From a virus, in IMG/VR virus record IMGVR_UViG_3300009117_000047, positions 83,877-135,850 of that record: DNA of 51,974 nt. One strand, written 5' to 3'. Position numbers and translations under genes: made by a program. This document shows, in pieces, positions 2,961 through 41,132 of the stretch. The notes beneath the pieces were generated by a model that was not told where the DNA came from, did no database searches, and worked only from the letters and a program-made list of their open reading frames with translations. Each line of letters begins with the position of its first letter. The first letter of the stretch is position 1.

Positions 2961-4445
2961 ATGATTAAAATTAAAGATATTGAATTTGTTTGTAGAGAAT
3001 TGCCACAGTTAATCGTAGCATTGGACGTTGATGGAAATTACATGCATATTAGAGATGTAAAAGAAGACACTGGTTACTATTGCCCTTGTTGCGGGGGTAT
3101 TGTAAGACCAAGAGCATTTAAGGACGATAGAGATTATATGGTGCAGCCACATTTTTATCATATAAATGGAGGATGTTCTGACGAGAGTCGTGCCCATTGG
3201 TTATATAAAAATTGGTTATTTAAAACGGGAAGTCAATTTTATATTGATAAAAAGCTATATATTGTCGACAATGTTGACATTGAAAAATCATACAACACTT
3301 CTTTTGGATTATATAGACCAGATATTACCGTGTCTTTAGACAACGGCAAAATTATGTTTTTTGAAATTAATTTTACAAGTTCAAAAACTGAAACTGATTA
3401 TTTTTGTAAATGGAATGAGTTAAGCAATGATGTTATAGAAGTTGATATTAAGAAATTAATGAATGAAGATTTTAACTGCAAAATACCTTCATTTTCACTT
3501 ATTTATTCTGATGGTAAATGTTTTAAAAGAAAATATCAAGAAAAGGATGATTACGCAAATACTATTGCCCAAAGAAAAATTGAATGGAAACGACAAGATA
3601 AAATAAATTATAAAATTATGTGGGAAAGGCTTGATTGGTTTTGGATCAAATTGCAAGAATTTAAAAAGAATAACGAAACCATTGAAGAGTTATTAGAGTC
3701 GTTTGAAGCTATACCAATTTCAGATAAAGAAATGTGTTTTGATTTATTTAAAAGACAATCATGCGTAAGAAAATTTAATCAAAATTTTAGAGACATAATT
3801 AACAATGAGATTAAAAAATATTTTACAAGAGAAAATTTACAAGAAATTTTAGCAAATCCTGTGAATATTAAAAAAGTGTCTGTCATAGAAAAACAAGGCT
3901 ATATTATTGACTATTCCATAGATAGTGTATTGTTTAACAAAAAAGAGTATCACGATAATCTGACCTCAAGCTTCTATACCAGAGAATGGGTGTTAAGATA
4001 TTCAGATGTACAAAAATTGATTATAGAAATAAAAGAAAAGGTAAAAGAATGCGAATGGAACGATAACTTACAAATTAGACTACATACAGATATACATCAA
4101 ATTATTAAAGATATTAAAAATCAGTATTTTAAAAAAGAATATTGTATTTGGCAATTTAAATTTTCCAAATCTAAAAAAATAGAAAAATTACATGATTGCG
4201 ATAATAATATTGAGTTGCGTGTTGGAATTAAAGATTGTAGTGACTGGTGGAATGAGTGCTGGCTTACTGGAAATTTTTATATTTCTATTAATGATATTGA
4301 TAAAAAGACAGATGATGAGGTACGTCAAATTATTATAAAAAAACTAACAAGAAAAATGAAAACCATATATAAACGTATTTTAGTAGATGGTGTAGGTCGT
4401 GATTCCAGATACATGTTTTGCAAAAACAAGGAGGTGGCTGAATGA
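2961..4445 (+). CDS. CoiA-like Zn-ribbon PD-(D/E)XK nuclease-fold protein
   Basis: YYCPCCG...PHFYH...C.DES.AH, followed by RPDI...FEI; overlaps the next gene by ATGA. Confidence 0.65.
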   Translation: MIKIKDIEFVCRELPQLIVALDVDGNYMHIRDVKEDTGYYCPCCGGIVRPRAFKDDRDYMVQPHFYHINGGCSDESRAHWLYKNWLFKTGSQFYIDKKLYIVDNVDIEKSYNTSFGLYRPDITVSLDNGKIMFFEINFTSSKTETDYFCKWNELSNDVIEVDIKKLMNEDFNCKIPSFSLIYSDGKCFKRKYQEKDDYANTIAQRKIEWKRQDKINYKIMWERLDWFWIKLQEFKKNNETIEELLESFEAIPISDKEMCFDLFKRQSCVRKFNQNFRDIINNEIKKYFTRENLQEILANPVNIKKVSVIEKQGYIIDYSIDSVLFNKKEYHDNLTSSFYTREWVLRYSDVQKLIIEIKEKVKECEWNDNLQIRLHTDIHQIIKDIKNQYFKKEYCIWQFKFSKSKKIEKLHDCDNNIELRVGIKDCSDWWNECWLTGNFYISINDIDKKTDDEVRQIIIKKLTRKMKTIYKRILVDGVGRDSRYMFCKNKEVAE

Positions 4446-7360
4446 TTAACCGCCCTCTTTATGTAAGAAAATTTCATTCTGGAAGACTGAAAGAATTTAA
4501 TTATTGTATTAACAATACTTTTGATGAATCAAAAGATTTGTCTGAAATAATTGGACTTTCGGATAGCCAAATGCTCAGAACTATTAGAGATATAAGAAAA
4601 AAAATTATTGACAGAAACAAACTAGAACTGCTAGTGAAAATGAGAGATTTCTATAAATTTAAACAAACAAGACAACAAAAAACAAGAAATGAAAATGTAT
4701 TAAAAATTGTTGGTAAATTAAAAAATGTAAATTCAAACATCGAATATGTTGAAAGAGTTAAGGATAAATATTTGAATAACTCTATATATCAATACGAATA
4801 TAAACGGATTCAAGATAAAATTAATAGAACAATGTTTATGGAAGATTATGTAGTTGTCGTTATGGATAATGCAAAACAATACAAGTATTTATACCATAAT
4901 GGGTTTTATATAAATGGTAAACTTTATAGAAGGTTAAGTTGTTCTGCTGGTCAAGCTCGTGTTTCTACTGTTATTTTTTGTAATGTTGAAATTATTGACG
5001 AAGTAAAATTTCGGCTAGATAATGGAAGAGATTTGACCAAAAAATTTTCTCCAAGCAAATTTAACGCCTACTTTGGACTATACGGGTCTGCAACTAATAT
5101 TGTTACTGAGCCAAGGTTTATAGTGGTTAAAGATTTTGAGAATAAATCTTCATTTATGGCTAATTATGTAATCGAAAATGGTAACAGAGTAGATGATACG
5201 ATTATTCAAAAAGAGATTAGAGATATGCCCATGAACAGAACCGATGGCATGGGACTGATTTCTTATGAAATGGCTCAAATATGGTCAAATGATTTACGGT
5301 TAGATTATGTTCCTTCTCAATTTTGCATTAGACAGAGTTTTATTAAGGGAATGTTATGTGTATTCCCAATTCATCAATTTTGTGAAGAAATAAATGGTGG
5401 GAACTATATAGTTGATACGATTTATAAAGATAAAAACGGAGAATATATAAAAGCAGATTTGAGAAATTATGATGTGATTATTACGGAATCACAATTTAAA
5501 TTATGGGACAGTTACAAATCAGCTGATGAATATATTTCAAATTGTCATCAAAACAAACTTAAATGGGGAGTCTCATTATACACCCCAAAGGAAGCAAAAA
5601 AAATGATGAAACTTAATTATCAGTTTATTCAAACGTTGGACTTATCAAAAAAAGATGTTGAGAAATTGTGTGAACAGTTTGTTGAGTGGATTACAGGAGT
5701 TTCGTATGATAATGTTTATTATATGATTTTGTTCTTACTGGGAGTAAATAATAATGTAAATAAAATTAATAATTTTTTATCAAGTAGCGACAACTATTGG
5801 ATTAAAGCATTAATTGCCAATCACGATGTTAAAAATGATAAATATATTCGCACCAAGGTTAGAAATTTAATTAGAAAAAAGATTGAAAATGCGTGTATGG
5901 GAGATATTTATGTTGATGGTAATTTTCAGGTAATTGTTTCTGATCCGTATGGTTTCATGCAACACGTTTGTGGTCAAGAAGTAACAGGTCTACTTAATGA
6001 TGGAGAATTTTATTCAAATTATTGGAACGAATTAAACGTTAAACAAGTAGACGCAATGCGTTCTCCTTTAACCTATTTATCTGAACACGTTATTTTGAAT
6101 CTTAGAAACGATGAAGAAGTAAATAAATGGTACAGGTATTGTAATCTTGGTATCATTTTAAATTATTATGGTCATGAGTCAGTAAATTTTGCGGGCAGCG
6201 ACTACGATTTCGATATTTTAGCTACAGTTTCAAATAAAACAATGATTAATGGGGTATATCAAAAAGAGCTACCAGTTGTTTATGATGCTCCCAAGCCACA
6301 AAAAATTATATTTACAGAAGATGATTTATATAAATCAGACACTTTCTCATTTGGTTCAATAATCGGTTCTATTACAAATAAATCAAGTAATGGTTATGCG
6401 TTGTTGCCAAAGATTAAAGAATTGTACGGAGAGAATAGTCAAGAGTATAAGTTGGTTAAATCAAGATTGCAACAATGTTGTAAAGCACAATCGGCTCAAA
6501 TAGACAAGGCGAAAATCGGTAAAAATGTCAAAGGCATACCTAGTGTTTGGGTAAATTATATTAAATTACCAAAGAATAAAAAAGCTTTAAAAAGATGTCG
6601 ACGGTTGAACAGAAAAAAACTTTACAACAATACTCTGCTAGACAAATATCCATATTTTTTTAGGTATGTGTACAGCGATACCAATAAGAAATATAAGCAA
6701 TATTTAGAAGAATACAATGTTACATGCAAACAAAGATACAAGATGTCGCTTATTGAACTTGAGTCTTTACAGAGGAAAACAAAAGATCAGTCTGAATTTA
6801 TCCATAAGTTTTATGAGCACTCCCCTATTATTCATAGTGATAGCTCAATGAATTTATTGTGTAAATACATAGAGGCTATTAATTTTGATATATCGAGTAA
6901 AACTAAGATTAACACATCTGAATCCGTATGTGAGTTATATAAAGATGATACTGTAAAATATTTAGAGTTATATGAAAAAATCACTGAGTCGTTAAAAGAA
7001 TATCTGAAAAATAAATCATTCAACATGCAAGCGAATAATGATGAAGATGATGAGAAAGAATATGATAATGAAAAATTTATAGAATTTAGTTATGATTCAG
7101 ATGACATGTACGATTATCTAAATAAAATTTGCCCAAATCCTAAAATTGTATTGAATTGTTTAATTGATTATTTCTATAAAGAGAATTATGCAAGCAATAA
7201 AGATTTATTATGGGCATCTTATGGAAAGTTAATTTACAAAAATATAACAAAAAATACTGGCATAAAAACTGCCCTATTCCCATTCCCATCAAAACAAGAT
7301 GAAAGCATAGACGTTCAATATTTAGGATACGGATATACATTAAAGGAGGTAAAATTATAA
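4442..7360 (+). CDS. yonO: YonO-like single-subunit DNA-dependent RNA polymerase (two-barrel, eukaryotic RdRP-related)
   Basis: 972 aa; motifs TDGMGLIS, QFCIR..FIKG, MRSP, catalytic AGSDYDFD, Q..QIDKAK; sits upstream of the late genes as in SPbeta. Confidence 0.85.
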   Translation: MINRPLYVRKFHSGRLKEFNYCINNTFDESKDLSEIIGLSDSQMLRTIRDIRKKIIDRNKLELLVKMRDFYKFKQTRQQKTRNENVLKIVGKLKNVNSNIEYVERVKDKYLNNSIYQYEYKRIQDKINRTMFMEDYVVVVMDNAKQYKYLYHNGFYINGKLYRRLSCSAGQARVSTVIFCNVEIIDEVKFRLDNGRDLTKKFSPSKFNAYFGLYGSATNIVTEPRFIVVKDFENKSSFMANYVIENGNRVDDTIIQKEIRDMPMNRTDGMGLISYEMAQIWSNDLRLDYVPSQFCIRQSFIKGMLCVFPIHQFCEEINGGNYIVDTIYKDKNGEYIKADLRNYDVIITESQFKLWDSYKSADEYISNCHQNKLKWGVSLYTPKEAKKMMKLNYQFIQTLDLSKKDVEKLCEQFVEWITGVSYDNVYYMILFLLGVNNNVNKINNFLSSSDNYWIKALIANHDVKNDKYIRTKVRNLIRKKIENACMGDIYVDGNFQVIVSDPYGFMQHVCGQEVTGLLNDGEFYSNYWNELNVKQVDAMRSPLTYLSEHVILNLRNDEEVNKWYRYCNLGIILNYYGHESVNFAGSDYDFDILATVSNKTMINGVYQKELPVVYDAPKPQKIIFTEDDLYKSDTFSFGSIIGSITNKSSNGYALLPKIKELYGENSQEYKLVKSRLQQCCKAQSAQIDKAKIGKNVKGIPSVWVNYIKLPKNKKALKRCRRLNRKKLYNNTLLDKYPYFFRYVYSDTNKKYKQYLEEYNVTCKQRYKMSLIELESLQRKTKDQSEFIHKFYEHSPIIHSDSSMNLLCKYIEAINFDISSKTKINTSESVCELYKDDTVKYLELYEKITESLKEYLKNKSFNMQANNDEDDEKEYDNEKFIEFSYDSDDMYDYLNKICPNPKIVLNCLIDYFYKENYASNKDLLWASYGKLIYKNITKNTGIKTALFPFPSKQDESIDVQYLGYGYTLKEVKL

Positions 7361-8449: not shown

Positions 8450-8521
8450 ATCGGTTTAGTGTAATTGGAAGCACGACGATCTCCAAAATCGTTAGTCTGG
8501 GTTCAAGTCCCAGAATCGGTG
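8450..8521 (+). tRNA. trnW: tRNA-Trp (CCA)
   Basis: Acceptor ATCGGTT/AATCGGT, D arm GTGT/GCAC, anticodon arm ACGAT-CTCCAAA-ATCGT, T arm CTGGG-TTCAAGT-CCCAG, discriminator G; no encoded CCA. Confidence 0.92.
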
Positions 8522-28968: not shown

Positions 28969-29142
28969 ATGAGAAAAGTAATAATTAGAGTAACGGGGTA
29001 TGTAGAAGATATTATGGGGACAACGATAATAGAAGAGGTAAACAGAGGTACATATGATGAGGCTATAAGTTTTATAAGAACTCATCCGCACAACAATATA
29101 ACGTGGAAAATCAAACCAGTGGTCAATGATTTATTCATATAA
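28969..29142 (+). CDS. Small hypothetical protein, 57 aa
   Basis: ATG behind GGGGG; MRKVIIRVTGYVEDIMG...; below the track cutoff. Confidence 0.55.
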   Translation: MRKVIIRVTGYVEDIMGTTIIEEVNRGTYDEAISFIRTHPHNNITWKIKPVVNDLFI

Positions 29143-29296: not shown

Positions 29297-30505
29297 ATGA
29301 GCAATCTTTTCGAGATGCTTTTGAAAGTTGGTTTTGATAAAAATTCCGCTAATGCAGAATATCAAAAATTAATTACCGAATTAAAGAAAAATAAATTTGA
29401 AGTAAAGCCTGATATTAACTACGCAAAATCCAAACAAGAAATAGGAAAACAAGTTGCCGATATTGCGAAGATATTTAAAGATGGGTTAAACATAGACGAT
29501 AAGTCTGCTAATAGGTATGCGAAAAGTTATTATAACGAAGTAGTTAAAGGTATCAAGTCTGTTCAAACAGAACAATCTAAACAATTATTACTCGCTAATA
29601 ATATTAAAGCAACGATGTCTCTAGGAAAGCTATCAACAGATTTTTCAAAGGTATCTGCCGATTATAATGGACTATCCAACAAGACTAATTCGCTAGAAAC
29701 ATCGTTCCAGAATCTAAAGCAGTTAAAAACTCAGTTTGAAAACTCAGGTAACAATCAGCAATTGGTTACTAATTATGAAAAATATAGTTCAAGTTTGCAA
29801 GCAGTTCAAAATCAGATTAAACAAATTAATATCGCCAATCAAGCTCTCAACAAAACGGATGCGTTTAGTAGAAATAAAAGTAGTGCTATAAGCAAGATAA
29901 ACTCTTTTATTAAAGAAAACTCTAATTTAACACAAAGTTCAATAGAAAAACTTAACAACCTTGCAACAGCTATGGAGTCTGCTGGCAATCCTAACGCTTT
30001 AAAAAACTTAACAAATGAATCCAACAATTTACAAAGAAGCCTTAAAGCCGCTGGAGAAACTGGTAGAAATTTCGGTGATGAGATGAAAAACAACTTCAAG
30101 AAGTTTTCTACTTGGGTTGGAGCATCAGCTATTTTCTTTGGGGTTCAAAGAGCTATTAAAGGCGTAGTGTCTAATGTAATTGAATTAGATACGGCTATGA
30201 CTTCTCTTTATAAGGTAACTGACGAAACAGATGCAAAGTATAATTCATTCTTACAAAACGCTTATAAGAGTTCACAAAAGTTAGGTCAATCAGTTACTAA
30301 TATAGTAGAACAAACTGCTCAGTGGGCAAAATTAGGTTATGGAGTTGATGATGCAGCTAAATTAGCTGAAATATCTAGTGTATATTCTAACGTTGGTGAA
30401 GTTGATAATCAAACCGCTGTAAAAGATATCGTAACGTCAATGAAGGCATATGGGATAGCCAGCTCTGAAGCTATTAAAATTATTGACTCATATAATAAGT
30501 TGGGT
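29297..30505 (+). CDS. Tape measure protein, exon 1 (403 codons)
   Basis: TP901-type TMP core (ELDTAMTSLYKVTD...WAKLGY...YNKLG); ends at the group I 5' splice site GGT|. Confidence 0.88.
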
Positions 30506-32048
30506 AAATTTGTTGCCCATATATGTAGTAATACATATTTAGCAAGTAGCTATAACGGTTAAAGTCGTATGGGAACGATAAGACCGTGGAAAGATTTATT
30601 AAAGTGTTGAAATATAAAAATAACAAGGAGATATGATTGAGAAAAGAACAATTTTTAAATTATAAAGAGAAAATTACATTTTGTAACAAATGCCAACAAA
30701 ATTTACATATTGATAATTTCAATTATGAAAAAATAAGGCTCAATGGGACAGGAGTTTGTAGGGCTTGTGAGTGGATAGCCGCACATAAAGAAAAAATCAA
30801 TAATTCTACTTATGATGAAAACGTTTTGAAAATAATAGTGCATCAAATCTTTGAAAACGAGTCGTTAAAAATTAACAATCTGGTAAATATTATAAAAATT
30901 GATTTAGATACAATTATCGACATGATAGAATATTTAAAAATTGGTAATAAACATTATTATGTAGATGTTCCATGTGAAGCTTGTAATAAATCAGTTACTG
31001 TCAATCCAGCAAAATATAAATCAAATAAAAATATCTATTGTTCACAAGAATGCTATTGGAATGATAAAACTAATAAAGTGGATAAAGGTAAGGATAGCGT
31101 ATATTATAATAGAATTAAAACTACATGTTCAAATTGCGGAAAAGAAATAGAAATTATTCCATCGCAGTACGATATTATGAATAGGTATAACGATAATCAT
31201 AACTTTTGTTCTCAGAAATGTTATTGGATATATAGAGGAAAGTATTATATAAATGAAAAATCTAATACTTATAATATGAAAATTTCAGAAGATGTTAAAA
31301 ATAGAATGAGAGAAGATTTCGTTAAAAGAATGAGTGGATTAAATAGGCTTAATACAAAACCACAAAAAATTGTTGATGATTTACTAGATGAACTGAATAT
31401 TAAGTATGAAAGAGAATATCCGATTAAGTATTATTCAATTGATAATTATTTAGTTGAGTATAATCTAATGATTGAAGTAATGGGAGATTATTGGCATGCA
31501 AATCCAAATAGATATAATGAAAATAAGTACTCATTAAACAAAATTCAAATGAATGGAATACATAGAGATAAACTTAAACATTCTTATATTTTAAATCATG
31601 AAAATATCGAGATATTATATTTATGGGAATATGATTTAGTTCACGACCCTCAGAAATGTAAAGAATTAATAGATAAATATATTAAAAGTAATGGTGTTTT
31701 GTCAGATTATCATTCATTAAATTATAAAATTATTGATTCTTTACTCACGTGTTGTAAAACAATTGTGCCGTATCAAAACAAAACGGCAGATGAATATAGA
31801 CATTTATTAAAAAACGTAATTTAACAAACACTTTAATAAAAATCCCTAGAGACTGTAATACTTGTTATGGTAACATAATAAGTTTCGCTACTCCCCTACT
31901 TTCATAAAATATGATTGAGGGTGAAGATCCAGTCCGACCTCACACAATAATCCCAAATAAAGAAATGTGAGAGTATGCCAGAAATGACATACCGCCATAT
32001 TAATTATGGTCAGTAGCTATTTTAAATAATAGTGAAAGTAACAGAATG
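30506..32048 (+). ncRNA. Group I intron 1 in the TMP gene (1543 nt, endonuclease-containing)
   Basis: P1 TGGGT/GCCCA with U-G at the splice site; P10 AAATTTGTT pairs with exon 2 AACGAGTTT; P7 GACTG (31851)/CAGTC (31930); terminal G 32048; in-frame join YNKLG|NEFATS. Confidence 0.92.
30637..31824 (+). CDS. Intron-encoded homing endonuclease: Zn-finger repeats plus Vsr/DUF559-like PD-(D/E)XK domain
   Basis: Repeated CxxC...YCSxxC modules, then IDNYL...IEVMGDYWH...RD..K...LYLWE. Looped out by TTTATTAAAGTGTT / AACACTTTAATAAA. Confidence 0.8.
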   Translation: MRKEQFLNYKEKITFCNKCQQNLHIDNFNYEKIRLNGTGVCRACEWIAAHKEKINNSTYDENVLKIIVHQIFENESLKINNLVNIIKIDLDTIIDMIEYLKIGNKHYYVDVPCEACNKSVTVNPAKYKSNKNIYCSQECYWNDKTNKVDKGKDSVYYNRIKTTCSNCGKEIEIIPSQYDIMNRYNDNHNFCSQKCYWIYRGKYYINEKSNTYNMKISEDVKNRMREDFVKRMSGLNRLNTKPQKIVDDLLDELNIKYEREYPIKYYSIDNYLVEYNLMIEVMGDYWHANPNRYNENKYSLNKIQMNGIHRDKLKHSYILNHENIEILYLWEYDLVHDPQKCKELIDKYIKSNGVLSDYHSLNYKIIDSLLTCCKTIVPYQNKTADEYRHLLKNVI

Positions 32049-32450
32049 AACGAGTTTGCAACTTCAGCCGCAGATATTGGTGAAGGCTTAAGAAATTCTG
32101 CATCTGCTTTAGCGTTAGCAGGTAACGACATTAATCAATCAATGGCTATGATTACTGGCGGTGCTGAAATAATGCAAGATGCAGGAGAAATGGGAAATGC
32201 TGTAAAAATTTTAAGTATGCGTTTGCGGGGAATGAAGGGTGAATTAGAAAGCATTGGCGAAGAGTACGAAAATGTAGAATCTATTAGCAAAATTCAGACC
32301 CAAATTTTAAACAGAACAAAAGGTACTGTCAATATTTTCGACGACGCAGGAAATTTTAAAAGCACATACGAAATTATTCAAGGAATTGCTAAAGTTTGGA
32401 ATGATATTTCTCAAGTAGACCAAGCAAGTTTGCTAGAAATTATAGCTGGT
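32049..32450 (+). CDS. Tape measure protein, exon 2 (134 codons)
   Basis: NEFATSAADIGEGL...GNAVKILSMRLRG...FKSTYEI...LLEIIAG, conserved TMP core. Confidence 0.88.
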
Positions 32451-32932
32451 AGATTTTACCAGTATGTACAGAAATGTGCATAAAGAACATATTTAATTGC
32501 AGGTAAAGTGTAAAGCCTTACACCACAATATAGAGGAAACTACTATATGAAGGTACGAAAGTAGAAAAAACGTAAGGATGATATATGGTCAAAAGCCTAA
32601 GTATCTTTAACAATCACAGCTCATGCAGCGAAGCACCCTAACGTATCCCGTAGACCATACGGTACTTTAGTCGAGGGTGAACGTTCAACGACTAGATTCA
32701 TGTCGAGATTTGGACTAGAGAATAAAGGTGGAATCCTGAATATCCAAATCAATAATCGTAGGGCGCAAATTTATGGCGTGGGTGAAACTCCCTTAAATCG
32801 AAAAGGTATGACTGCTATTCTATATTTAGAATGTGGTTAAAAAATAGTCTAAACTTCTGTGGAAGCACAGAGATGTTATTATTGATATATTATAATAACT
32901 AGTGAGCGTTATTAACTCACTGAATATAATTG
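32451..32932 (+). ncRNA. Group I intron 2 in the TMP gene (482 nt, no ORF)
   Basis: P element AATTGCAGG, Q element ATGCAGCGAAG, P7 GACTA (32690)/TAGTC (32845), terminal G 32932; in-frame join IAG|KQRGN; P1 GCTGGT/ACCAGT. Confidence 0.88.
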
Positions 32933-33259
32933 AAGCAACGTGGCAACTCTATAGCCGCTCTCATCCAGTCTTTTCAATCTGGTCAAGCACAAAAAGCATT
33001 ATCCGCAGCTCAAAACTCTTCTGGTTCAGCTATGCAAGAACAAGAACGTTGGTTGAATAGTATCCAAGCTAAGCAACAACAACTTGTAGCTTCAGCTCAA
33101 GAATTTAGCAATACATTTTTATCGTCTTCAACTGTTAAAGGTTCTGTTGATGGTTTAAATTTAATTATTAGTGGACTCACAGATGTAACAAAATTATTAG
33201 GAACAATTCCTACACTTGCAACTATAGCTTTTGGAGTTATGGGAGCAAAAGGTTACGGT
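32933..33259 (+). CDS. Tape measure protein, exon 3 (109 codons)
   Basis: KQRGNSIAAL...NSSGSAMQEQERWLNSIQAK, typical TMP continuation; ends GGT| before the intron 3 core. Confidence 0.85.
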
Positions 33260-33931
33260 AAACATACACCCATATGCCCTGTTTATATTTAATATATAGC
33301 AATCGTTACATATTAAGTGTGAGCTGTCCTTGAGGGTTGGCAGTCAAGGAGTAACAGTTGTGCCATGCAAATATAAATTGAGTTTTCATATTAAATTGCA
33401 TCGGTCAGGTTAAATTGCTGGGAAGTTCTCATGAATCTTATAACTATAATACATAGTAGAAATAGTTTCTGAAAAGTAGAAAAAATCATAAGATTCGACA
33501 TATGGTGAAATAAAAGCATATTAGCGTGATGAACTAGTATGTCCTAAGTGTCATGGAAGTTTAATCAAATTCTTTCAAAGGGATGGTCAGCAGCCAGTCA
33601 CCCTACCCTACTTTGGGTAACGATGTGTGAGCATTGTACTAAAGACATATTTAGACTTGTATCTTGTACTAGGAACAATCTAATTATGGTACAGTTGGTG
33701 GAGGTTCATCGGCTTTAAGCCTCGGAGACTATCATACGAGATTGATAGTCTTTTAATATAAAGTCAGGACTACGCATGAAAAGATTAAATAAAGTGCGTA
33801 ACGGTAGTTTAAAGACTACGGTAAAATGAGTGCATTAAAAATAGTAATAACAAATTTTGACAAAATATATAGATTATTTACAATTGTTGGTATATAATGT
33901 TTATTATATTACTGATGATTGGAGACAGCAT

Positions 33932-34783
33932 ATGAATGTTGATACTAAAACTTTAAAAAATATAATAAAAGGAAATTCAATACATAATCAATGTAAAAAT
34001 CATAAACAAGTATTACGAGAATTTTTATTATTAGAAGACGAAACAATTCAATTAATTAAAGATAAAAAGTGTAAAGACGTAATACCATATATATTATGGA
34101 ATAATTTTGTAAACGATAAAGGAACTTTAGCTCCTAAAACAAAAATACAATACAAAAGATATGTATGGGGACAAAAGGTGTTTGTTGATTTTGGGGCTAC
34201 TAATATTCAAACAGAGCTATCATTCCCTCATCCAGCAATTGTTTTATTTAATTTCGCAAATACAGTAATTATAGTTCCAACAACAACTGATGATAAAACT
34301 TCAGATTTTTCAGAAGACATTGAAGAATCTATTATAAAAGTTAAAAGTGACAATGCAATATTCCCAAAGAATAGTGTTATCAATATTCATCAAATTATGT
34401 CGATTCATAAAGAAAGAATCATTAACGATTTAGGTGTTAATGTTAAAAACTATATAATGGATAAAGTAGAAATAGATAGGTTAAATGAGAATAATAGGTT
34501 TAAATTTTTTCATTATGATTCAAATTTGCTCGACTGTATAAGACTTAAGATAAATTTACAACTTAATAAAGATTATTTTGAGGATTTTTATTTAGAAAGT
34601 GCATATACTGATAATGAAATATATAAATTGAATGATGAAATCAAAAACTTAAAAGAGATAAACAAAAAACTAGAATTATGTATTGACGAAAAAACTAAAT
34701 TATGTTACAATGCAAATACAAGCAATAATTGTTATGAAGATAACTTAAACAAATGTTGCTCTATATTGTCAGCCGAAAGGTGA
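33932..34783 (+). CDS. PemK/MazF-like endoribonuclease-fold protein (intron cargo)
   Basis: WGQKVFVDFG.TNIQTELSFPHPAIVL...VIIVPTT...INIHQIMSIHKERI; ATG 33932 behind GGAG; promoter-like TTGACA at 33857 and TATAAT at 33893. Confidence 0.72.
   Translation: MNVDTKTLKNIIKGNSIHNQCKNHKQVLREFLLLEDETIQLIKDKKCKDVIPYILWNNFVNDKGTLAPKTKIQYKRYVWGQKVFVDFGATNIQTELSFPHPAIVLFNFANTVIIVPTTTDDKTSDFSEDIEESIIKVKSDNAIFPKNSVINIHQIMSIHKERIINDLGVNVKNYIMDKVEIDRLNENNRFKFFHYDSNLLDCIRLKINLQLNKDYFEDFYLESAYTDNEIYKLNDEIKNLKEINKKLELCIDEKTKLCYNANTSNNCYEDNLNKCCSILSAER
34683..34711 (+). promoter_or_regulatory. Sigma-A promoter inside the 3' end of the PemK-like gene
   Basis: TTGACG, 17-nt spacer ending TGT, TACAAT. Confidence 0.65.
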
Positions 34784-34841
34784 GACCGTTAACTTAATGC
34801 TTTAAATGATAAGGAGTAGTGGAAGTGTCCTACTCCTTTTT
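34718..34841 (+). ncRNA. Candidate small RNA (possible RNA antitoxin) overlapping the PemK-like 3' end
   Basis: Bounded by the 34683 promoter and a strong terminator; hairpins AGCAATA/TGTTGCT and GCC-GAAA-GGT; no separate ORF. Confidence 0.4.
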
Positions 34842-34878
34842 GCTTGTTTTAACACTTGTTTTTAGCAAGTGTTTTTTT
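34811..34878 (+). terminator. Tandem intrinsic terminators inside intron 3
   Basis: AAGGAGTAG...CTACTCCTTTTT and AACACTTG...CAAGTGTTTTTTT. Confidence 0.75.
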
Positions 34879-34947
34879 GTTATGTAAAACATTCAAATAT
34901 ATAACAAAATATGGTATACTAAAAATAAAATGCTATGAGGTGAAGTT

Positions 34948-35031
34948 ATGGGAGAAAAAATGGAAAAGTTTGTTTTTATTGTATGCATTGTGGACTTCAA
35001 TCTAGCAAGATGTTTCCCCTACTCAGGTTAA
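34948..35031 (+). pseudogene. Frameshifted, truncated paralog of the Zn-ribbon gene at 36510
   Basis: RBS GAGGTG; adding one A to the A6 run gives MGEKNGKVCFYCMHCG versus MSERNGKICFYCTKCG. Confidence 0.7.
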
Positions 35032-35069
35032 TCTAAAAATTTACTTTGGATTATTTTTCAAATTTTGTA

Positions 35070-35098
35070 TTGACATTACGTAACCTGTATGTTATGGT
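35070..35098 (+). promoter_or_regulatory. Sigma-A promoter of the RHH-BRO unit
   Basis: TTGACA, 17-nt spacer ending TGT, TATGGT. Confidence 0.65.
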
Positions 35099-35131
35099 AT
35101 ATACATGGTACATAAAGAAAGGTGTGATTGC

Positions 35132-35308
35132 ATGGCAGATACAAATTCTAAATCAAGAAAACGTGTAGCAACTACTGTTAATCCTGATATATGGCAAAAC
35201 TTTAAAGTAGCTTGCGTTAAAAGTCAACTTGATATGAATGATGTGTTGGAATTACTTATGCAAGCGTATTCTGATGGTGTCATTAAACTAGAAGATATTT
35301 CAGAATAA
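35132..35308 (+). CDS. Ribbon-helix-helix (CopG/Arc-like) regulator (intron cargo)
   Basis: RKRVATTVNPDIWQNFKVAC...MNDVLELLM pattern; ATG 35132 behind AAGGTG. Confidence 0.7.
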   Translation: MADTNSKSRKRVATTVNPDIWQNFKVACVKSQLDMNDVLELLMQAYSDGVIKLEDISE

Positions 35309-35433
35309 AAAAGATAACCCTCGTCACCGACCAAAGTATCAAGGGTTATCTACATAATGTAATTAAAACAATATCTGTTTTCAATTATACCAAATCTTAA
35401 AAGTTATGTCAAATATAATTTGAAAAGGATGGT

Positions 35434-36252
35434 ATGAGTATGAAAAATGAATTCGCAAATGTAATGATTTTTGAAGGTCATAATGTAGAAGTTTTTGAAT
35501 GGAATGGAAAAATATTATTTAATCCGTATCATGTAGGAAATTGTTTAGACCTTGGCGAAAGTGCTGTAAAAATGGCAATCACTAAAATGAACGGAAAACA
35601 AGTTATTAAACTTACAAACTCTAAAGTCAAAGATGTTGACTTTAGAAAACTACATAATACAGGCGAGAATTTCTTAACTGAAAGTGGAGTATATAAACTT
35701 ATTTTTAAATCTCATAAACCAGAGGCAGAGAAATTCCAAGACTGGGTAACTGATGAAGTTCTTCCTACTATTCGCAAACATGGAATATATGCTACAGATT
35801 CAACTATTGAAACTATACTAAATAATCCAGATACAATGATTGCAGTTTTGCAGGAATTAAAGAGTGAACGAGAACAGAAAATTGCTCTTCAAAAAGAAAA
35901 CACCTTATTGATTCCAGATGCTAAAATGGCTAATGATTTAATGAAATATAACGGATTATATACATTAAAAGAAATTGCAGATTTAATTGAATGTGGACGG
36001 ACAGAACTATGTACCCTACTCCGTATTGGAAAAGTGTTAAGCAAGCAATCTGGTTACAATCTTCCATTGAGAAAGTTCATAGAATCAGGTTATTTTAAAG
36101 TCAAAATACATAGCAACACCAAAGTGCCTGTTACGTTAATTGCTCCGAAAGGGTTGAAATTCATCTATAGGTTAATAAAGAAACTTGATATGACAGATGA
36201 GTTTAATTCAGATTTATTGATTTCAACATATAAAGATAGTGAGGTGGCTTAA
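35434..36252 (+). CDS. BRO-N / KilA-C phage antirepressor (intron cargo)
   Basis: FLTESGVYKLIFKSHKPEAEKFQDWVTDEVLPTIRKHGIY, NPD, C-terminal TLIAPKGLKFI. Confidence 0.9.
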   Translation: MSMKNEFANVMIFEGHNVEVFEWNGKILFNPYHVGNCLDLGESAVKMAITKMNGKQVIKLTNSKVKDVDFRKLHNTGENFLTESGVYKLIFKSHKPEAEKFQDWVTDEVLPTIRKHGIYATDSTIETILNNPDTMIAVLQELKSEREQKIALQKENTLLIPDAKMANDLMKYNGLYTLKEIADLIECGRTELCTLLRIGKVLSKQSGYNLPLRKFIESGYFKVKIHSNTKVPVTLIAPKGLKFIYRLIKKLDMTDEFNSDLLISTYKDSEVA

Positions 36253-36423
36253 ATGAAACCTCAGAAATATCTGAAAGCGATTGTATTGATGTTAGATCAC
36301 TATCATGATACAAAGTTGGTAGAAAAGAAATTTTCTATTAGTGAGTTAGAAGATGCTCGTAAGTGGCTTGCTACATATGATTATGGGAACAACGTGTGTT
36401 TATGTTATGAGATGTACATATGA
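36253..36423 (+). CDS. Small hypothetical protein, 56 aa (intron cargo)
   Basis: RBS GAGGTGG; follows the antirepressor directly; followed by a terminator. Confidence 0.6.
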   Translation: MKPQKYLKAIVLMLDHYHDTKLVEKKFSISELEDARKWLATYDYGNNVCLCYEMYI

Positions 36424-36435
36424 TTACAAAAAATT

Positions 36436-36462
36436 GAGAGTGGAACATTTCACTCTCTTTTT
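36436..36462 (+). terminator. Intrinsic terminator inside intron 3
   Basis: GAGAGTG...CACTCTCTTTTT. Confidence 0.7.
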
Positions 36463-36509
36463 ATGATGTAAAGGATGTGATATAATTAAATAAAAAAGGA
36501 GTTGGGCGC

Positions 36510-36974
36510 ATGAGCGAAAGGAATGGTAAAATTTGTTTTTACTGCACTAAATGCGGTGATTATACTTTTAATGAAGATGATTATGAATACCTTAATAGAA
36601 AATGTTATTATTGTGGTAGCGACATAAAAGAATATGATTTGAAATATTTCTTAAGTAAATATGAAGCAAATGTATTTTCGGATTTAAAAGATAACCAACG
36701 AAAAGAGTTTTTAAGATTATTATACGAAGACTTCATTATAAATAAATCAGAATTTGACGTTAATATATTTAGAGATAATGCAACATTGTCAAATTTAGAA
36801 ATCGTGTTTGACAAAAACAAACCATTGATTAAACCTAAGTGCCCATATTGTCACTCAAACGATACGCATAAAATATCTACCGCTGGAAGGATGATTTCTG
36901 GTGGATTACTTGGGTTCGGATCAGGCAAGATTGGGAAAAGTTGGCATTGTTCTACTTGCAATAGTAATTTCTAA
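36510..36974 (+). CDS. Double Zn-ribbon protein with glycine-rich segment (intron cargo)
   Basis: CTKCG...CYYCG and PKCPYCHS...GGLLGFGSGKIGKSWHCSTC; extended -10 TGATATAAT and RBS AAGGAG. Confidence 0.8.
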   Translation: MSERNGKICFYCTKCGDYTFNEDDYEYLNRKCYYCGSDIKEYDLKYFLSKYEANVFSDLKDNQRKEFLRLLYEDFIINKSEFDVNIFRDNATLSNLEIVFDKNKPLIKPKCPYCHSNDTHKISTAGRMISGGLLGFGSGKIGKSWHCSTCNSNF

Positions 36975-37043
36975 CTTGCAAGCCAAGTATAAATTATCTT
37001 TAATCAAGACCATCATCAAGTCTAGCTTATAAAAAAGATAACG

Positions 37044-40000
37044 AGTATGTTAAGCAGTTTTAAAGGTAAAGACATACTTGGCGGCATGAATAAAGAAACA
37101 TATCTTACTGAATTAGAAAATAAATTAAACGGAAATATAGTTTCATTTAATAAATGGAAGAATGCCTTACCAACAAAAGAACTCCAAGATTTTGCAACAA
37201 AAGCAAAAACGAATGGTGGAGTGATTTCTGATTTTGACTCCTACGTTAAAAAATCATCTCAAGGGTTAAAAGGTCTTTCCTCATCTTTTGGTGCAACTGC
37301 AAAATCAATAGCTTTAAACATGGGCGTAATGTTAGCTATCACATTAGCAATCAAAGGTATTGCTATGGCTTTCGATGCAGTAAATGTTACTTTCGCAGAA
37401 CAAAAAGATAAAGTAGATGGACTGACAGAAGGCTATAATAGTCTTAAAACTGAATTAGATGATTTAAAATCTAAAAATCCATCTAAATTAACTTCAAGCG
37501 AAAAAGAGAGAATGAATTATCTTGAACATAGATTAGAACTTGAAAAACAGCTACTAGATATTGAAAATAGAAAATTAGCTGATAGTGCAATTTATGGCAA
37601 GGGAGATATTACTAGCGGAGGAATTCAGGCTACAACCGCAAATTTAAATTCTGAATTTATACTAAGTGGTGGAGTCATAGATAGTAATATCGAAAAGCTG
37701 AATAATTTAAAGACTTCTTTTCAAAATCTTGATACGAGCAGTCCTAACTTTAAGCAAAGATTAGAAGACTTAAATGCTAGAGAGCAAAAAATAAATGACA
37801 CTTTAGAAGAAAGAAAAAATAAATATATTGAGCTTGAATCTGGGTATCTTAAAAATGCTGAAGATATTCGTTCATATATTGATGCTGGTGTTTATAGTAA
37901 CGACAAGAAGGCTTTAGAAGATGCAAAGTCTCTCATGGACTATAACCTAAAACAAGCTGATTTAGTAAAACAACGAATATTTGAGATTGAAGGAACTATA
38001 GGTAACGAGGACTTCTTCTCGTCTGCCGTATTTAAAACAGTTGAATCCGATTTAAAGGAATTAGCCAAACAAGGTAAATTGACCTCTGATGCTTTAGCAG
38101 ACAATAAGTATTCAGAACTAAATGAGTTGATGAAATCTTTAGGGATATCTATCGAAGATTTAGTCAAAAAACTTAATGGTGTATCAGATTCAGAGCAAGC
38201 ATTCTCCCCTCTTACATCTGCTATAAATGAATACGAAGATGCTATTTCTGCTATACCTGAAAAATTAGCTGAAATTGAAGAAATCCAAGATAAAGTTAAT
38301 GATGGTTATTCATATAGTTACGATGAGATTGAAAAATTAAGAGCGAAGTATCCAGAGTTAGAAAGTGCTATTTATCGTACTGCTGACGGATGGGGAATAG
38401 AAAAAGAAGCTGTAGATTTGTTGCATGGTTCTGTTGGTGATTTGGGTGAACAATATAAAACCGTTCAATCCGTAATGACCGAAGCATTAAATTCTGATGT
38501 AGCAACTAGACTATCTAATTTAGGTATTGAACTTGAAGGAATTAAAACAATAGCAGATGCTTATGCGGCTATTGCAGGGGCTAGACAGAAAGCAGGTGGA
38601 GCCACACCTTTATCTAATGGTGCTGCTGGAGCAACTTTGCCTTCAAAAGATGCGGATTTATCAAAATTAATAAACATTTCAGCTTATAGTCAGGATGCGA
38701 TTAATTTTGGAAAAGAAGCTGAAAGACTTTCTGCTCTCCAAGAAAAACTTAAAGATTTGCAGTCAGGTAGAGTATCGGGTGGTTCACCATCAAAATCTAA
38801 ATCATCTAAAGAAACAGAAGCATACAAAGCTCAAATTGATGCTTATGCTAAACTTCAAGCTGAACTAGACAAAATTCAAGCTGACATTTCTGCCAATGAA
38901 AAGAAATTTAATGATACAAAAGACGATAAAGAAAAAATCTATCTACTTCAACAAAGGATTGCTCTCACCCAGCAAGAACAGGTGGCACTACATAATCTCA
39001 ATAATGCAAGAGATAAAGAGATAGCTAATAACGTTAAATTATTACAGCAAAAAGGATTTGATGTTAGCTATAATCCTGATTCTAATAACTTAGAAATTAG
39101 TAATTTAGAACATTTGAATGACTTAAAAGGTAAGAATCAAGAAAAGACAAACGACCTAATTAAAGAGTATGAGGAATTAATTAAATCTACTCAATCTCTG
39201 AACGAAGAGAATAAAAAATCATCTACTTCTTGGTGGGATAGTTATTATAATTTGTCTAAGTATAAGGATGAAATTAAAGACCTTAACGAAGAAATTTATA
39301 ATAAAGAGGTAGATAATCAAGAGCACTTATTAGAATTGTTATCTTCTGTTAGTGGAACTGAATCTCAACAAATTGCCATTCGTGAAGATATGCAAAAAAG
39401 AGCATTGCAGAGAAGACAAGAGTTGATAAATGATGACTATAGTCTTCATGTTGAAGAGATCAGAAAGTTGGAAAATGACTGGAAATCTTACTATGATAAA
39501 GTTCTTGAGTTACAAAAACAACAGTTAGAAAATGAAAAAAAATTATTAGAACAGCAAAAATCTGATAGAGATTCTGCCCTCTCTGCTATCACAAGTGCAA
39601 TAGATGATGAAATTAGTAAGCTTCAAAAAGAGAAAGATGCCTTATCTGAAGCAAATGATGAGCGTGAAAGAAAGCTTAAGCTTCAAGAGTTGGAAGCTAA
39701 TGCAGAAAAAGCTCGTTCTCAAAAGACTGCTTATATTTATCGTGAGAATAAGGGTTTTACTTACGAAGCTGATCAAACTGCTATTACAGATGCTAATAAT
39801 GCTATCAATGATTATAAAGCAGAACAAGCGTTAAAAGATAAGCAAAAAGCCTTACAAGATGAAATTGATAGTCTACAAGAATATAAATCCAAATGGGAAG
39901 AAGTAGCAAATGCTGTTGAGGAACAAGAAAATAAACAAAAAGCAGCGATGTTACTTGGATCAAATTGGAAAAGTAAAATTATTGGTCAGGATACCACTGT

Positions 40001-41132
40001 TTTATCAGATTTCAAAAACGATTATATAGATGTAGAAAAATCAATTAATGAAAAAACCAAAGACATAGAAACAATTACCACAGAATTAGCTAATCATCTT
40101 GACACTGAGTTCACCAGAATTATTAAGTCATTTGAAGATATGACTAAAGCTATTGGTGGAGCATTTGGTATTGAAGTCACAGATGAGGCTAACAAAGAAA
40201 GCATCCCAACTCCTGCTTCCGAATCAAAACAAAAATCATCAACTAGCTTTTGGGATAAAATTGTTGGTAAGGTAACGGGAGTATTTGATTTATTAACAGG
40301 TAGTACGTCTAATAATACTAGCACGTTAGAAGAAAACAATACCAACTTAAAAACTTCGTCTAGCACACAAAAGACCAATACTGATGAAGTTAAGAACAAT
40401 TCAACAAACGTAAAAAGTAATAGCACTTACGTTGATGCGAATAGTACCAAATTATCCGATAATAGCTCATCTGTTGACACAAATAGTGATAACGTCGAAA
40501 CATTAAACGATACGCTGGTTACTTCGACTGACAAGATTGTTAAAGCCGCAGAAACTGTAGCAACTGCTAAAGAGTCTAAATCTGAAGATGGTGATTCTAG
40601 TTCAAGTGGTAGCTCAAGCTCCAGCAGAAGTGGCAGTAGTGTTATTGGTAAAGTTATTAGCGGAATTGGCAAAGTAATTGGTGGATTAACCAAACGTCAC
40701 TCTGGTGGTATTATTGGCGATACCTCCGATAAGTCTAAAGCGTTGTTTGAACTTTCAAACCAGAAACTTAAATCAGATGAAGAAGTTATAGTCGGACAGA
40801 GCGGAGAACTTGTTTTAACGAAAGAACAACAGAGTAATATTGTAGACAGATTGAACCAAATGTCAGCTTATGACCAATCGTTATTTTCAAGTTTATCTTC
40901 TAACTTGGGTAATTACACTGGTTATTTGCCAAACAATTTCAATGTTCCCACTGGTACAATTAGTGATTATAGCGTTAATGGTAATAGTAATAAAAACACA
41001 GTACCACAGCAAACTATTCATATTGCGAATGTAAACTTCTCAGATATTCAAGAAGTAAAACAGATTCAGGAAGCAATTCTTACGTTGCCTCAATATGTAG
41101 CACAAAAATCAACCAGTGGATACAATAGATAA
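37044..41132 (+). CDS. Tape measure protein, exon 4 (1362 aa, coiled-coil C-terminal part)
   Basis: Long coiled coil, hydrophobic TMP segment, C-terminal HSGGIIG...GELVLT motif; no SD sequence before ATG 37047, consistent with an exon. Confidence 0.82.
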   Translation, partial: SMLSSFKGKDILGGMNKETYLTELENKLNGNIVSFNKWKNALPTKELQDFATKAKTNGGVISDFDSYVKKSSQGLKGLSSSFGATAKSIALNMGVMLAITLAIKGIAMAFDAVNVTFAEQKDKVDGLTEGYNSLKTELDDLKSKNPSKLTSSEKERMNYLEHRLELEKQLLDIENRKLADSAIYGKGDITSGGIQATTANLNSEFILSGGVIDSNIEKLNNLKTSFQNLDTSSPNFKQRLEDLNAREQKINDTLEERKNKYIELESGYLKNAEDIRSYIDAGVYSNDKKALEDAKSLMDYNLKQADLVKQRIFEIEGTIGNEDFFSSAVFKTVESDLKELAKQGKLTSDALADNKYSELNELMKSLGISIEDLVKKLNGVSDSEQAFSPLTSAINEYEDAISAIPEKLAEIEEIQDKVNDGYSYSYDEIEKLRAKYPELESAIYRTADGWGIEKEAVDLLHGSVGDLGEQYKTVQSVMTEALNSDVATRLSNLGIELEGIKTIADAYAAIAGARQKAGGATPLSNGAAGATLPSKDADLSKLINISAYSQDAINFGKEAERLSALQEKLKDLQSGRVSGGSPSKSKSSKETEAYKAQIDAYAKLQAELDKIQADISANEKKFNDTKDDKEKIYLLQQRIALTQQEQVALHNLNNARDKEIANNVKLLQQKGFDVSYNPDSNNLEISNLEHLNDLKGKNQEKTNDLIKEYEELIKSTQSLNEENKKSSTSWWDSYYNLSKYKDEIKDLNEEIYNKEVDNQEHLLELLSSVSGTESQQIAIREDMQKRALQRRQELINDDYSLHVEEIRKLENDWKSYYDKVLELQKQQLENEKKLLEQQKSDRDSALSAITSAIDDEISKLQKEKDALSEANDERERKLKLQELEANAEKARSQKTAYIYRENKGFTYEADQTAITDANNAINDYKAEQALKDKQKALQDEIDSLQEYKSKWEEVANAVEEQENKQKAAMLLGSNWKSKIIGQDTTVLSDFKNDYIDVEKSINEKTKDIETITTELANHLDTEFTRIIKSFEDMTKAIGGAFGIEVTDEANKESIPTPASESKQKSSTSFWDKIVGKVTGVFDLLTGSTSNNTSTLEENNTNLKTSSSTQKTNTDEVKNNSTNVKSNSTYVDANSTKLSDNSSSVDTNSDNVETLNDTLVTSTDKIVKAAETVATAKESKSEDGDSSSSGSSSSSRSGSSVIGKVISGIGKVIGGLTKRHSGGIIGDTSDKSKALFELSNQKLKSDEEVIVGQSGELVLTKEQQSNIVDRLNQMSAYDQSLFSSLSSNLGNYTGYLPNNFNVPTGTISDYSVNGNSNKNTVPQQTIHIANVNFSDIQEVKQIQEAILTLPQYVAQKSTSGYNR

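Follow-up and report, generated by a model that had tools for sequence, protein, structure and literature searches.

We analysed a 51,974-nt window of viral DNA, the right-hand 52 kb of a 135.8-kb provirus record (IMGVR_UViG_3300009117_000047) with an estimated completeness of 87%, in which the tape measure protein (TMP) gene consists of four exons separated by three intervening sequences (IVS1, IVS2 and IVS3), each located directly after GGT. The third of these, IVS3 (33260-37043, 3784 nt), carries a cassette of five genes and is probably a cargo-bearing, IStron-like group I intron. The G+C content of the window is ~30%, and nearly all of its genes, including the TMP exons, lie on the plus strand. 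Exon 1 (29297..30505) comprises 403 codons and ends in TTGGGT, exon 2 occupies 32049..32450, exon 3 (32933..33259) comprises 109 codons and ends in GGT, and exon 4 (37044..41132) comprises 1362 codons. Positions 3-87 of the Pfam profile PhageMin_Tail matched exon 1 at the end of the open reading frame (ORF) 29297-30562, and positions 87-201 matched exon 2 in the ORF 32046-32483. The TMP fragments resemble the TMPs of SPbeta-like and phiCD211-like siphoviruses.

Exon 3 was used to search viral, genome and metagenome collections for relatives of this locus (L-numbered loci). The nearest genomic relative of the window was L011, a metagenome-assembled genome of Aminipila sp., and Aminipila is the probable host of the L011-type prophage. 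The three intervening sequences could be placed because exon 1 (at residue 403), exon 2 (at residue 2) and exon 3 (at residue 1) abut in one frame in relatives, as seen by tblastn in L003, L004, L005, L006, L008 and others; exon 2 is contiguous with exons 1 and 3 there. At the third site, exon 3 ends with GGTTACGGT at 33259, the last base of IVS3 is G37043, and exon 4 starts with AGTATGTTA at 37044. Joining 33259 to 37044 is in frame and brings KGYG next to SMLSS. A first-pass annotation, made by reading the window alone, had proposed a giant group I intron at this place, and its coordinates, in-frame join, 3' hairpin, terminal G37043, AACATAC/GTATGTT complementarity and absence of a Shine-Dalgarno (SD) sequence before exon 4 were all reproduced.

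Two relatives, L016 and L018, are uninterrupted at the IVS3 site. Their proteins read GIKGIG followed by SVKSSLSEI, as compared with GAKGYG followed by SMLSSFKGK across the junction in the window, and the corresponding DNA reads GGTATAGGA AGTGTA in these relatives and GGTTACGGT followed by AGTATG in the window. The joined product of exon 3 and the N-terminus of exon 4 aligned with L016 and L018 without a gap at the junction, and with L007 with a gap of 2 residues. Farther downstream, exon 4 could be aligned with L004, L013 and L020, e.g., AMAFDAVNVTFAEQKDK with VMAYDALNVSLTEQKE; these three and L007 also have continuous TMPs. The intron-free TMPs, which the first-pass annotation had singled out for comparison, were thus collinear across the exact junction, and removal of IVS3 gives a continuous, collinear host gene, as is expected of a group I intron. 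These comparisons support the view that the flanks of IVS3 are parts of one TMP. Three other kinds of interruption were considered and rejected: a group II intron, for which the ends and the domain structure are wrong; an intein or read-through, owing to in-frame stops and an insert length that is no multiple of three; and translational bypass, for which the distance is far too long.

In other Clostridia prophages, five further intron types with inserts of 3-7 kb were found at this codon, always directly after GGT. The window, L002, L011 and L014 share the same 5' segment at this codon and form type A. The introns of types B (L005, L006, L021), C (L012) and E (L022) contain 3.0-4.4 kb, that of type A' (L003/L017) contains 7.0 kb, and the contig of type D (L015) is cut. 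Exon 4 is not preceded by an SD sequence in any type. In the window, its first ATG (37047) lacks such a sequence, as opposed to most genes of the window, which carry AAGGAG(G)-type sites, and in L003/L017 exon 4 runs through 69 open codons ahead of any ATG, GTG or TTG.

The first ~565 nt of IVS3 are non-coding and form the best-conserved stretch of the locus. Within type A, this core was 95.8%, 88.7% and 88.6% identical to the window in L011, L002 and L014, respectively, whereas exon 3 was 89.6%, 83.5% and 73.7% identical and the start of exon 4 was 67-70% identical. RNAalifold with the four type A sequences gave a structure of 181 pairs, in which 99.2% of cells were paired. Compensatory changes were found in 8 pairs, compared to 0-2 in slid controls, and they fall in P2, P5 and P8. 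The 5' end of the intron (33260..33280) contains two candidate guides, AACAUAC followed by ACC (33261-33270) and CAUAU followed by GCC (33271-33278), and an in-frame stop lies at 33290-33292. The ribozyme-like core itself (33281..33826, plus strand) is supported by RNAalifold, a script check of the helices and conservation.

In our hand-drawn model, the core follows the group I order P3-P4-P6-P7-P3'-P8-P7'-P9, and all helices proved complementary in the script check. P2-type hairpins (33281-33412) precede P3 (AGGUU, 33407-11, with AGCCU, 33718-22), J3/4 (AAA, 33412-14) and P4 (UGCUGG, 33416-21, with UCAGCA, 33587-92). P5 and its long extension start from 33425-29 and 33580-84, and they are followed by P6 (UCACC, 33598-602, with GGUGG, 33697-701) and the J6/7 region (AGGUUCA, 33702-08). 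P7 (GGCUUUA, 33711-17, with UAAAGUC, 33759-65) encloses the 3' strand of P3, P8 (33724-33 with 33744-53, containing two compensatory changes) and J8/7 (UAAUA, 33754-58), as a group I core requires, and the 5' strand of P3 leads through AAA into P4. P9 (33772-77 with 33794-99) and P9.1 (33801-22) complete the model. RNAalifold independently recovered P4, P5, P6, P7 enclosing P8, and P9. Furthermore, AAUUGCUGGGAA, CAGCAGCCAG and AGGUUCA match the consensus of the Rfam group I model RF00028 at P4, P6 and J6/7. A first placement of P7, GACU with AGUC around the P8 hairpin, was dropped, because two compensatory changes occur in the hairpin GACUAUCA/UGAUAGUC, which suits P8. These data support the 5' ~565 nt as a conserved structured RNA with group I topology.

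The type A core is a single copy in the window's own record. A blastn search of the core against phages returned only two 63-nt matches, both in Staphylococcus jumbo phages, and an exact-pattern scan of the viral and genome collections with two core motifs returned the L002 contig only. Among 401 genomes of the order of L011, a BLAST search with the core found L011's own genome plus three marginal 40-nt matches. An nhmmer profile of the type A core run against all fetched loci detected no homology between it and the other intron types. A query with the N-terminus of exon 4 found no relative among viral contigs.

The 3' end of IVS3 is a tail of ~70 nt (36975..37043, plus strand) with nested hairpins, a conserved CAUCAAGUCUAGCUUAU stretch and the terminal G37043. 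The outer hairpin, TTATCTTT (36994-37001) with AAAGATAA (37034-37041), pairs at 8 of 8 positions. The inner hairpin (36997-37000 with 37006-37009) covaries, as UCUU/AAGA in the window, CCUU/AAGG in L011 and UUUU/AAGG in L002. The terminal G is present in the window and L002. AACATAC (33261-33267) pairs at 7 of 7 positions with GTATGTT (37045-37051), one base past the first base of exon 4, and the window can thus form a P10 of 5 bp (CAUAU with GUAUG) or 7 bp (AACAUAC with GUAUGUU), both of which skip that first base. At the 5' splice site, the rival guide ACC would give a U-A pair, and in L014 a U-to-C change in the exon keeps the pairing with G of a GCCCUG guide. Two type A members carry a 15-nt insertion, AAACAAYTATGTTTC, directly after the 5' splice site (L002:8328-8342 and L014:1288-1302). 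This insertion includes a near copy of the start of the 3' exon (TATGTT) and is able to pair with the candidate guide AACATAC; a P10 mimic and a recombination scar are both possible explanations.

The guides were clearer in other intron types. In types B, C and E, P10 and P1 together form a contiguous guide of 12-13 bp, the intron ends in G and the join is codon-exact; types C, D and E have P1 helices of 6-7 bp with U-G (6 bp in type D). We evaluated the guides against 2000 shuffles as contiguous helices and against 3000 shuffles with a one-base offset allowed. The type B guide (UUUAAGUUG followed by GCC, against GGU and CAACUUAAA) was equalled by 0-2 of the 2000 and 7-8 of the 3000 shuffles, the type C guide (UGCGAG followed by GCUCAAG) by 1 and 9, and the type E guide (ACUUAU followed by GCCGCU) by 49 and 102, respectively. 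In addition, P3, P4, P7, P8 and J8/7 (GAAGAU) could be recognised by eye in canonical order in type E, and P3, P4, P6 and P8 were in order in type B.

Between the core and the tail, IVS3 carries the five genes listed in the first-pass annotation, and Pfam and PHROG searches agreed with that list. The first encodes a PemK/MazF-domain protein (33857..34783, plus strand; PF02452, E 1.1e-8; MazE/MazF-like in PHROG) with a likely start at ATG 33932 after GGAGA and a promoter-like site at 33857-33884 (11/12 in the promoter scan). An intrinsic-terminator-like hairpin with a T run follows on the plus strand (34851..34873). The second gene (35105..35308, plus strand) encodes a small ribbon-helix-helix (RHH)/ParG-like DNA-binding protein, for which the Pfam ParG match (E 1.3e-3) is below the cut-off, and a promoter-like site (35070-35098) lies ahead of it. 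The third gene (35434..36252, plus strand) encodes an anti-repressor with BRO-N and KilAC/ANT domains (Pfam E 8e-14 and 1e-13; PHROG 130, E 1e-51), and the fourth is a 56-aa ORF (36253..36423, plus strand) without a family match in Pfam or PHROGs. After a bidirectional terminator-like hairpin (36436..36457), the fifth gene (36510..36974, plus strand) encodes a double Zn-ribbon protein with a shared C-terminal motif, CPxC...KIS...GK..W.C..C.

A candidate small RNA of ~90 nt lies on the minus strand (35299..35395) between the RHH and anti-repressor genes. It resembles ctRNA_pT181 at 31.5 bits in Rfam, below the cut-off of 56, and has a strong terminator of its own and a 12/12 promoter of the sigma-A type (35412-35384; TTGACA, 17 nt with TG, TATAAT). 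This minus-strand RNA could be an antisense regulator or an RNA antitoxin. Furthermore, 34907..35002 (plus strand) is a frameshifted and decayed second copy of the start of the Zn-ribbon gene, detected by blastn to the starts of the Zn-ribbon genes of L002 and L011. This copy is closer to the L011 and L002 versions, and it is the mark of a past replacement of cargo.

Related phages (L002, L011 and L014) do carry the same core with different cargo, a comparison that the first-pass annotation had called for. Among the type A members, the cassette between the core and the Zn-ribbon gene is completely different: L002 has a Cro/C1-type helix-turn-helix protein and a 567-aa ORF on the minus strand, and L011 has two ORFs without assigned function and a split BRO/ANT gene. 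The 7.0-kb type A' intron of L003 encodes RHH, BRO/ANT, NsnA/GmrSD-like defence and GNAT proteins. The cargo of L005 (type B) comprises an NYN nuclease-domain protein and YbjQ, that of L012 (type C) three minus-strand genes, and that of L022 (type E) a DUF3800 protein and a Lar-like Zn protein. The defence protein of L003 (10983-11957) is NsnA/GmrSD_N-like (PADLOC E 4e-37), and its gene is a candidate anti-phage defence gene.

The Zn-ribbon gene recurs in these cassettes. Types A, B (L006), C and E have homologues of it beside the 3' splice site, encoded on either strand, and only 3 homologues of the protein were found among 5.8 billion proteins. The AlphaFold2 model was confident, with a predicted local distance difference test score (pLDDT) of 83.6. 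A Foldseek search of the PDB with this model gave no match at E<0.1 and no nuclease fold, and PADLOC gave only a chance-level LmuB match. In Pfam, PHROGs and PADLOC, none of the cargo genes matched HNH, GIY-YIG, LAGLIDADG or transposase families. Library scans found no homing endonuclease (LAGLIDADG, GIY-YIG, HNH, His-Cys, PD-(D/E)xK or EDxHD) in the cargo of IVS3 or of its type A relatives. Transposase and TnpB domains, as expected from the IS200/IS605 or IS607 element of an IStron, were likewise missing from the cargo of the window and seven relatives.

We therefore consider it fairly probable, on the evidence of sequence comparison, that 33260-37043 is a cargo-bearing group I intron spliced in cis. 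The collinearity of the flanks, the structured RNA, the turnover of cargo, the absence of a translation start for exon 4 and the recurrence of this architecture at the same codon in five further intron types support this interpretation. In the proposed mechanism, a complete catalytic core (~565 nt) would lie at the 5' end, followed by a long insertion after P9.1 and a ~70-nt tail ending in G. The insertion would be a changeable, independently promoted cassette, in the window comprising the MazF-like toxin, the RHH protein, the anti-repressor, the antisense RNA and the Zn-ribbon protein. The cargo's own promoters would drive its expression in the lysogen. Upon induction, a late transcript, probably made by a YonO-type polymerase, would span the whole element; the ribozyme would then join 33259 to 37044 and, with the removal of IVS1 and IVS2, yield one TMP of ~2008 aa. 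Cis splicing, terminator read-through and lysogenic cargo expression are what we infer in this scheme. The first-pass annotation had likewise envisaged cargo promoters active in the lysogen; promoter-like sites were indeed found, and expression in the lysogen would be the expectation.

Several observations weigh against this interpretation. RF00028 gave no match to IVS3 at E<=10 in any scan, nor to any other intron at this codon even in permissive scans of short windows, so that the covariance-model search suggested in the first-pass annotation returned nothing, and its claim of a group I core holds as a conserved structured RNA with group I topology but not as an Rfam match. Rfam at gathering score found only a tRNA in the whole window, and permissive Rfam scans of 32500-37600 and 33250-33860 gave no group I match. 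RF00028 scans over the window's record and nine related records found IVS2-type introns only, and permissive RF00028 scans of five related loci and the type E core found nothing. The sensitivity of RF00028 is doubtful here, since it misses the type E core, which is canonical by eye, yet finds the IVS2 family. Because RF00028 is silent, the group I membership of IVS3 rests on the hand-drawn model. In that model, P3 and P7 are invariant in the four sequences and thus beyond the reach of covariation, and the 5' strand of P3 is equally compatible with an extension of the P2 stem.

The remaining adverse points concern the ends and the interior of the element. P1 in the window (GGU with GCC, 33276-78) has 3 bp including a U-G wobble, plus 2 bp past a C-C mismatch. 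The combined P1 and P10 were equalled by 487 of 3000 shuffles with a one-base offset allowed, which is chance level; the window's own guide is therefore no evidence, and the P10 proposed in the first-pass annotation stands as a 7/7 complementarity but is no better than chance. L011 has A at the omega position (14550), and in L003:15352 and L017:17352 the last intron base is also A, with no G within ~40 nt of the junction implied by the 9-bp P10. These omega-A copies may be defective, or the rule for the 3' site may differ. Moreover, the path from the core to the 3' splice site contains the two plus-strand terminator-like hairpins (34851-73 and 36436-57), and relatives have minus-strand genes there. 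Finally, the absence of an endonuclease or transposase claimed in the first-pass annotation agrees with the Pfam, PHROG and PADLOC results, but the statement that there is no mobility gene is provisional, because it hinges on the function of the Zn-ribbon protein kept beside the 3' splice site.

The silence of RF00028, the chance-level P1/P10 of the window, omega A in L011 and L003/L017, and the terminators and antisense genes within the element would also suit a relic intron in a split TMP. In that case, the 5' RNA would be a former ribozyme or have another RNA role, and two cooperating polypeptides would be encoded around an accessory island, the N-terminal piece ending with GYGKHTPICPVYI and the C-terminal piece starting at Met 37047; types A and B indeed have an ATG or TTG no more than one codon from the junction. 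However, exon 4 has no SD sequence in any type, and L003 lacks a start codon for 69 codons. The core is conserved above its coding flanks and has compensatory changes, and the guides of types B, C and E match both exons, which is sensible only if the exons are ligated, at a junction that is codon-exact and preceded by G. We consider a split TMP unlikely.

The terminators in the cargo also bear on whether splicing would occur in cis. In discontinuous (trans-) splicing, two separate transcripts, one comprising exons 1-3 and the core and the other the 3' tail and exon 4, would associate by base pairing. Trans-spliced group I introns occur in organelles. In the window, no terminator was found from the Zn-ribbon gene to exon 4, so that transcripts from the extended -10 promoter of this gene (~36470-36500) would carry the tail and exon 4. 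However, a minus-strand gene comes last in the cargo of types B, C and E, leaving no obvious plus-strand promoter before exon 4, and no convincing long-range pairing was found that would connect the core's 3' end to the beginning of the tail. Furthermore, a processive YonO-type polymerase makes cis transcription plausible, and trans-splicing thus appears quite improbable.

The candidate for this polymerase is encoded at 4442..7360 (plus strand), upstream of the structural module. BLASTP aligned it to SPbeta YonO with 25% identity over 512 aa (E 3e-29), and it matched the Pfam family RdRP (PF05183). A protein search of the whole record with SPbeta YonO was empty, whereas direct BLASTP to the ORF was clearly positive. 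SPbeta YonO is highly processive, and it transcribes the SPbeta late genes as one operon (PMC5467207). The YonO-type enzyme is likely the late-gene transcriptase of this phage, which would have to pass through the cargo, and because the phage encodes it, read-through of the cargo terminators is plausible.

Loss of function was also considered. A mobile cassette or a decayed intron might have inactivated the TMP gene of a defective prophage, with the exon frames still open as the event was recent. The incomplete provirus record, the omega G-to-A change in L011 and the lack of the element in the cultured-phage collection fit this scenario; cultured phages gave no match to the region by megablast or to exon 4 by tblastn. 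However, at least six diverged lineages keep exon 4 (>1300 codons) open and exons 1-3 intact, and the exon 4 protein is 83% identical between the window and L011 without stops. The scaffold is kept while the cargo differs, which argues for long persistence under selection and makes inactivation very unlikely.

A further possibility is excision at the DNA level upon induction by a site-specific recombinase, in the way that skin or SPbeta leaves host genes. A gene of the phage integrase family (tyrosine recombinase, 27428-28459) is indeed located in the late region directly upstream of the TMP gene. Its counterpart in SPbeta, yomM, occupies the same position beside yomI, an uninterrupted TMP gene. 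In addition, the cargo contains no recombinase, and direct repeats are missing at the junctions of types B, C and E; the window shows only a loose TWACG.GTA resemblance. DNA excision is therefore extremely unlikely, and RNA splicing of IVS3 in cis is the interpretation that we retain.

The other two intervening sequences are of a more familiar kind. IVS1 (30506..32048, plus strand) is an intron with an endonuclease ORF (30637-31824), which matched endonuclease and homing endonuclease families in PHROG and has tandem Zn-finger modules and a Vsr/EDxHD-like domain; the intron is absent in five relatives. By eye, its guide GCCCA pairs with the exon sequence UGGGU, and its final base is G. Parts of the IVS1 ribozyme were found elsewhere in the TMP genes of L007 (5336-5721 and 7659-7782, inside exon 2) and L021 (15405-16944, far downstream), which points to an ectopic spread of this ribozyme within the TMP gene.

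IVS2 (32451..32932, plus strand) is an ORF-less group I intron that matched RF00028 with 19.6 bits. Its homologues with 78-79% identity scored 56.2 bits (L008, above the cut-off) and 40.9 bits (L002), and its core matches the intron region of the lysin gene of Staphylococcus phages K and Sb-1; IVS2 is thus a bona fide group I intron. In the guide of the window, the splice-site U pairs with A instead of G. IVS2-type introns also occupy other positions in TMP genes, namely site 1 in L002 (5486-5888) and the inside of exon 3 in L008 (8128-8518). L018/L019 have one at site 2 with an extra ~1.4 kb, and L016 has an IVS2-type intron too.

Two features outside the TMP gene were also recorded. A small gene upstream of it (28969-29142) has counterparts with 70-72% DNA identity inside the intron cargo of L002 (9403-9582) and L014 (2386-2515), which suggests gene traffic between the region upstream of the TMP gene and the intron. 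A tRNA gene (8450-8521; 57.3 bits in Rfam) is flanked by the polymerase region and by a gene for a beta-CASP/MBL nuclease (8771-10216).

Among known systems, IVS3 recalls IStrons. In CdISt1 of Clostridioides difficile and its relatives, an IS200/IS605-type element is embedded at the 3' end of a group I intron (PMC3984707; PMC10690162). Both have a 5' ribozyme core, kilobases of coding DNA and then the 3' splice site, and both occur in Clostridia hosts inside protein-coding genes, where the insertion is thought to be neutralised by splicing, which in IVS3 is predicted from sequence. However, the cargo of IVS3 has no TnpA/TnpB or IS ends and is a variable multi-gene cassette with its own promoters and terminators, and with minus-strand genes in relatives. 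Furthermore, IVS3 is found at one conserved codon of one gene, as opposed to the dispersed sites of IStrons. The T4 nrdD (sunY) intron, which is ~1 kb long with one homing-endonuclease ORF (I-TevII), is arranged similarly, in that the catalytic core precedes the ORF and the splice site belongs to a short 3' terminal domain far downstream. IVS3 differs from it in packing five genes into 3.8 kb (relatives reach 7 kb) and in lacking a recognisable endonuclease. The flanks of the ORF in the nrdD-type layout are described in PMC3984707.

Prophage TMP genes with group I introns have been described before (PMC2504315; annotation of phiCD211). Those of Bacillus cereus-group prophages contain several introns per gene, TMP-IVS1/2/3 (PMC2504315), and in phiCD211 a compact group I intron is annotated between the two TMP coding sequences. 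For the TMP intron of ICP1, splicing was shown by RNA-seq and RT-PCR, and the endonuclease content is variable (PMC10448857). As in the window, the host gene is the same, there are several introns per TMP gene, the 5' splice site follows U, and the ORF content varies while the flanks are constant. However, those introns are compact and either empty or equipped with homing endonucleases; IVS1 and IVS2 are of this ordinary kind, whereas IVS3 is not. Organellar group I introns may house non-endonuclease genes or several ORFs, such as rps3 in a fungal mitochondrial LSU intron. They resemble IVS3 in their multi-kb size and as sites for a gene unrelated to mobility, but they belong to eukaryotic organelles and carry one fixed gene, as opposed to the fast-changing toxin, defence and regulator cassette of IVS3. 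What appears to be new here is the presence of several fast-changing, independently promoted accessory genes without a transposase or recognisable endonuclease at one conserved codon in at least six intron types.

A bolder extension, which we put forward tentatively, is that the entire 3.8-kb element, or as much as 7 kb in relatives, leaves a YonO-type late transcript in cis as a single RNA, and that such elements would be the largest group I introns known in bacteria or phages. At this TMP codon, the intron would then act as a maintained hotspot for the exchange of toxin, anti-repressor and anti-phage defence genes among prophages of gut Clostridia, forming an accessory island concealed within an essential gene, and the Zn-ribbon protein would be a new intron-associated mobility or splicing factor. 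If IVS3 splices, group I introns would, besides carrying homing endonucleases, serve as cost-free docking sites for moron and defence cassettes in essential late genes. Such cargo would remain silent as far as the virion is concerned, yet be expressed in the lysogen, and it would be inherited with a gene that cannot be lost. Annotation pipelines read such loci as "two tape measure genes plus an island", so that the TMP length and the predicted tail length are miscounted and the intron is hidden. Furthermore, group I introns of bacteria and phages would have a size limit several-fold higher than at present, and the way in which a ribozyme locates its 3' splice site at a distance of 3-7 kb, past terminators and antisense genes, would become a question for this family of introns.

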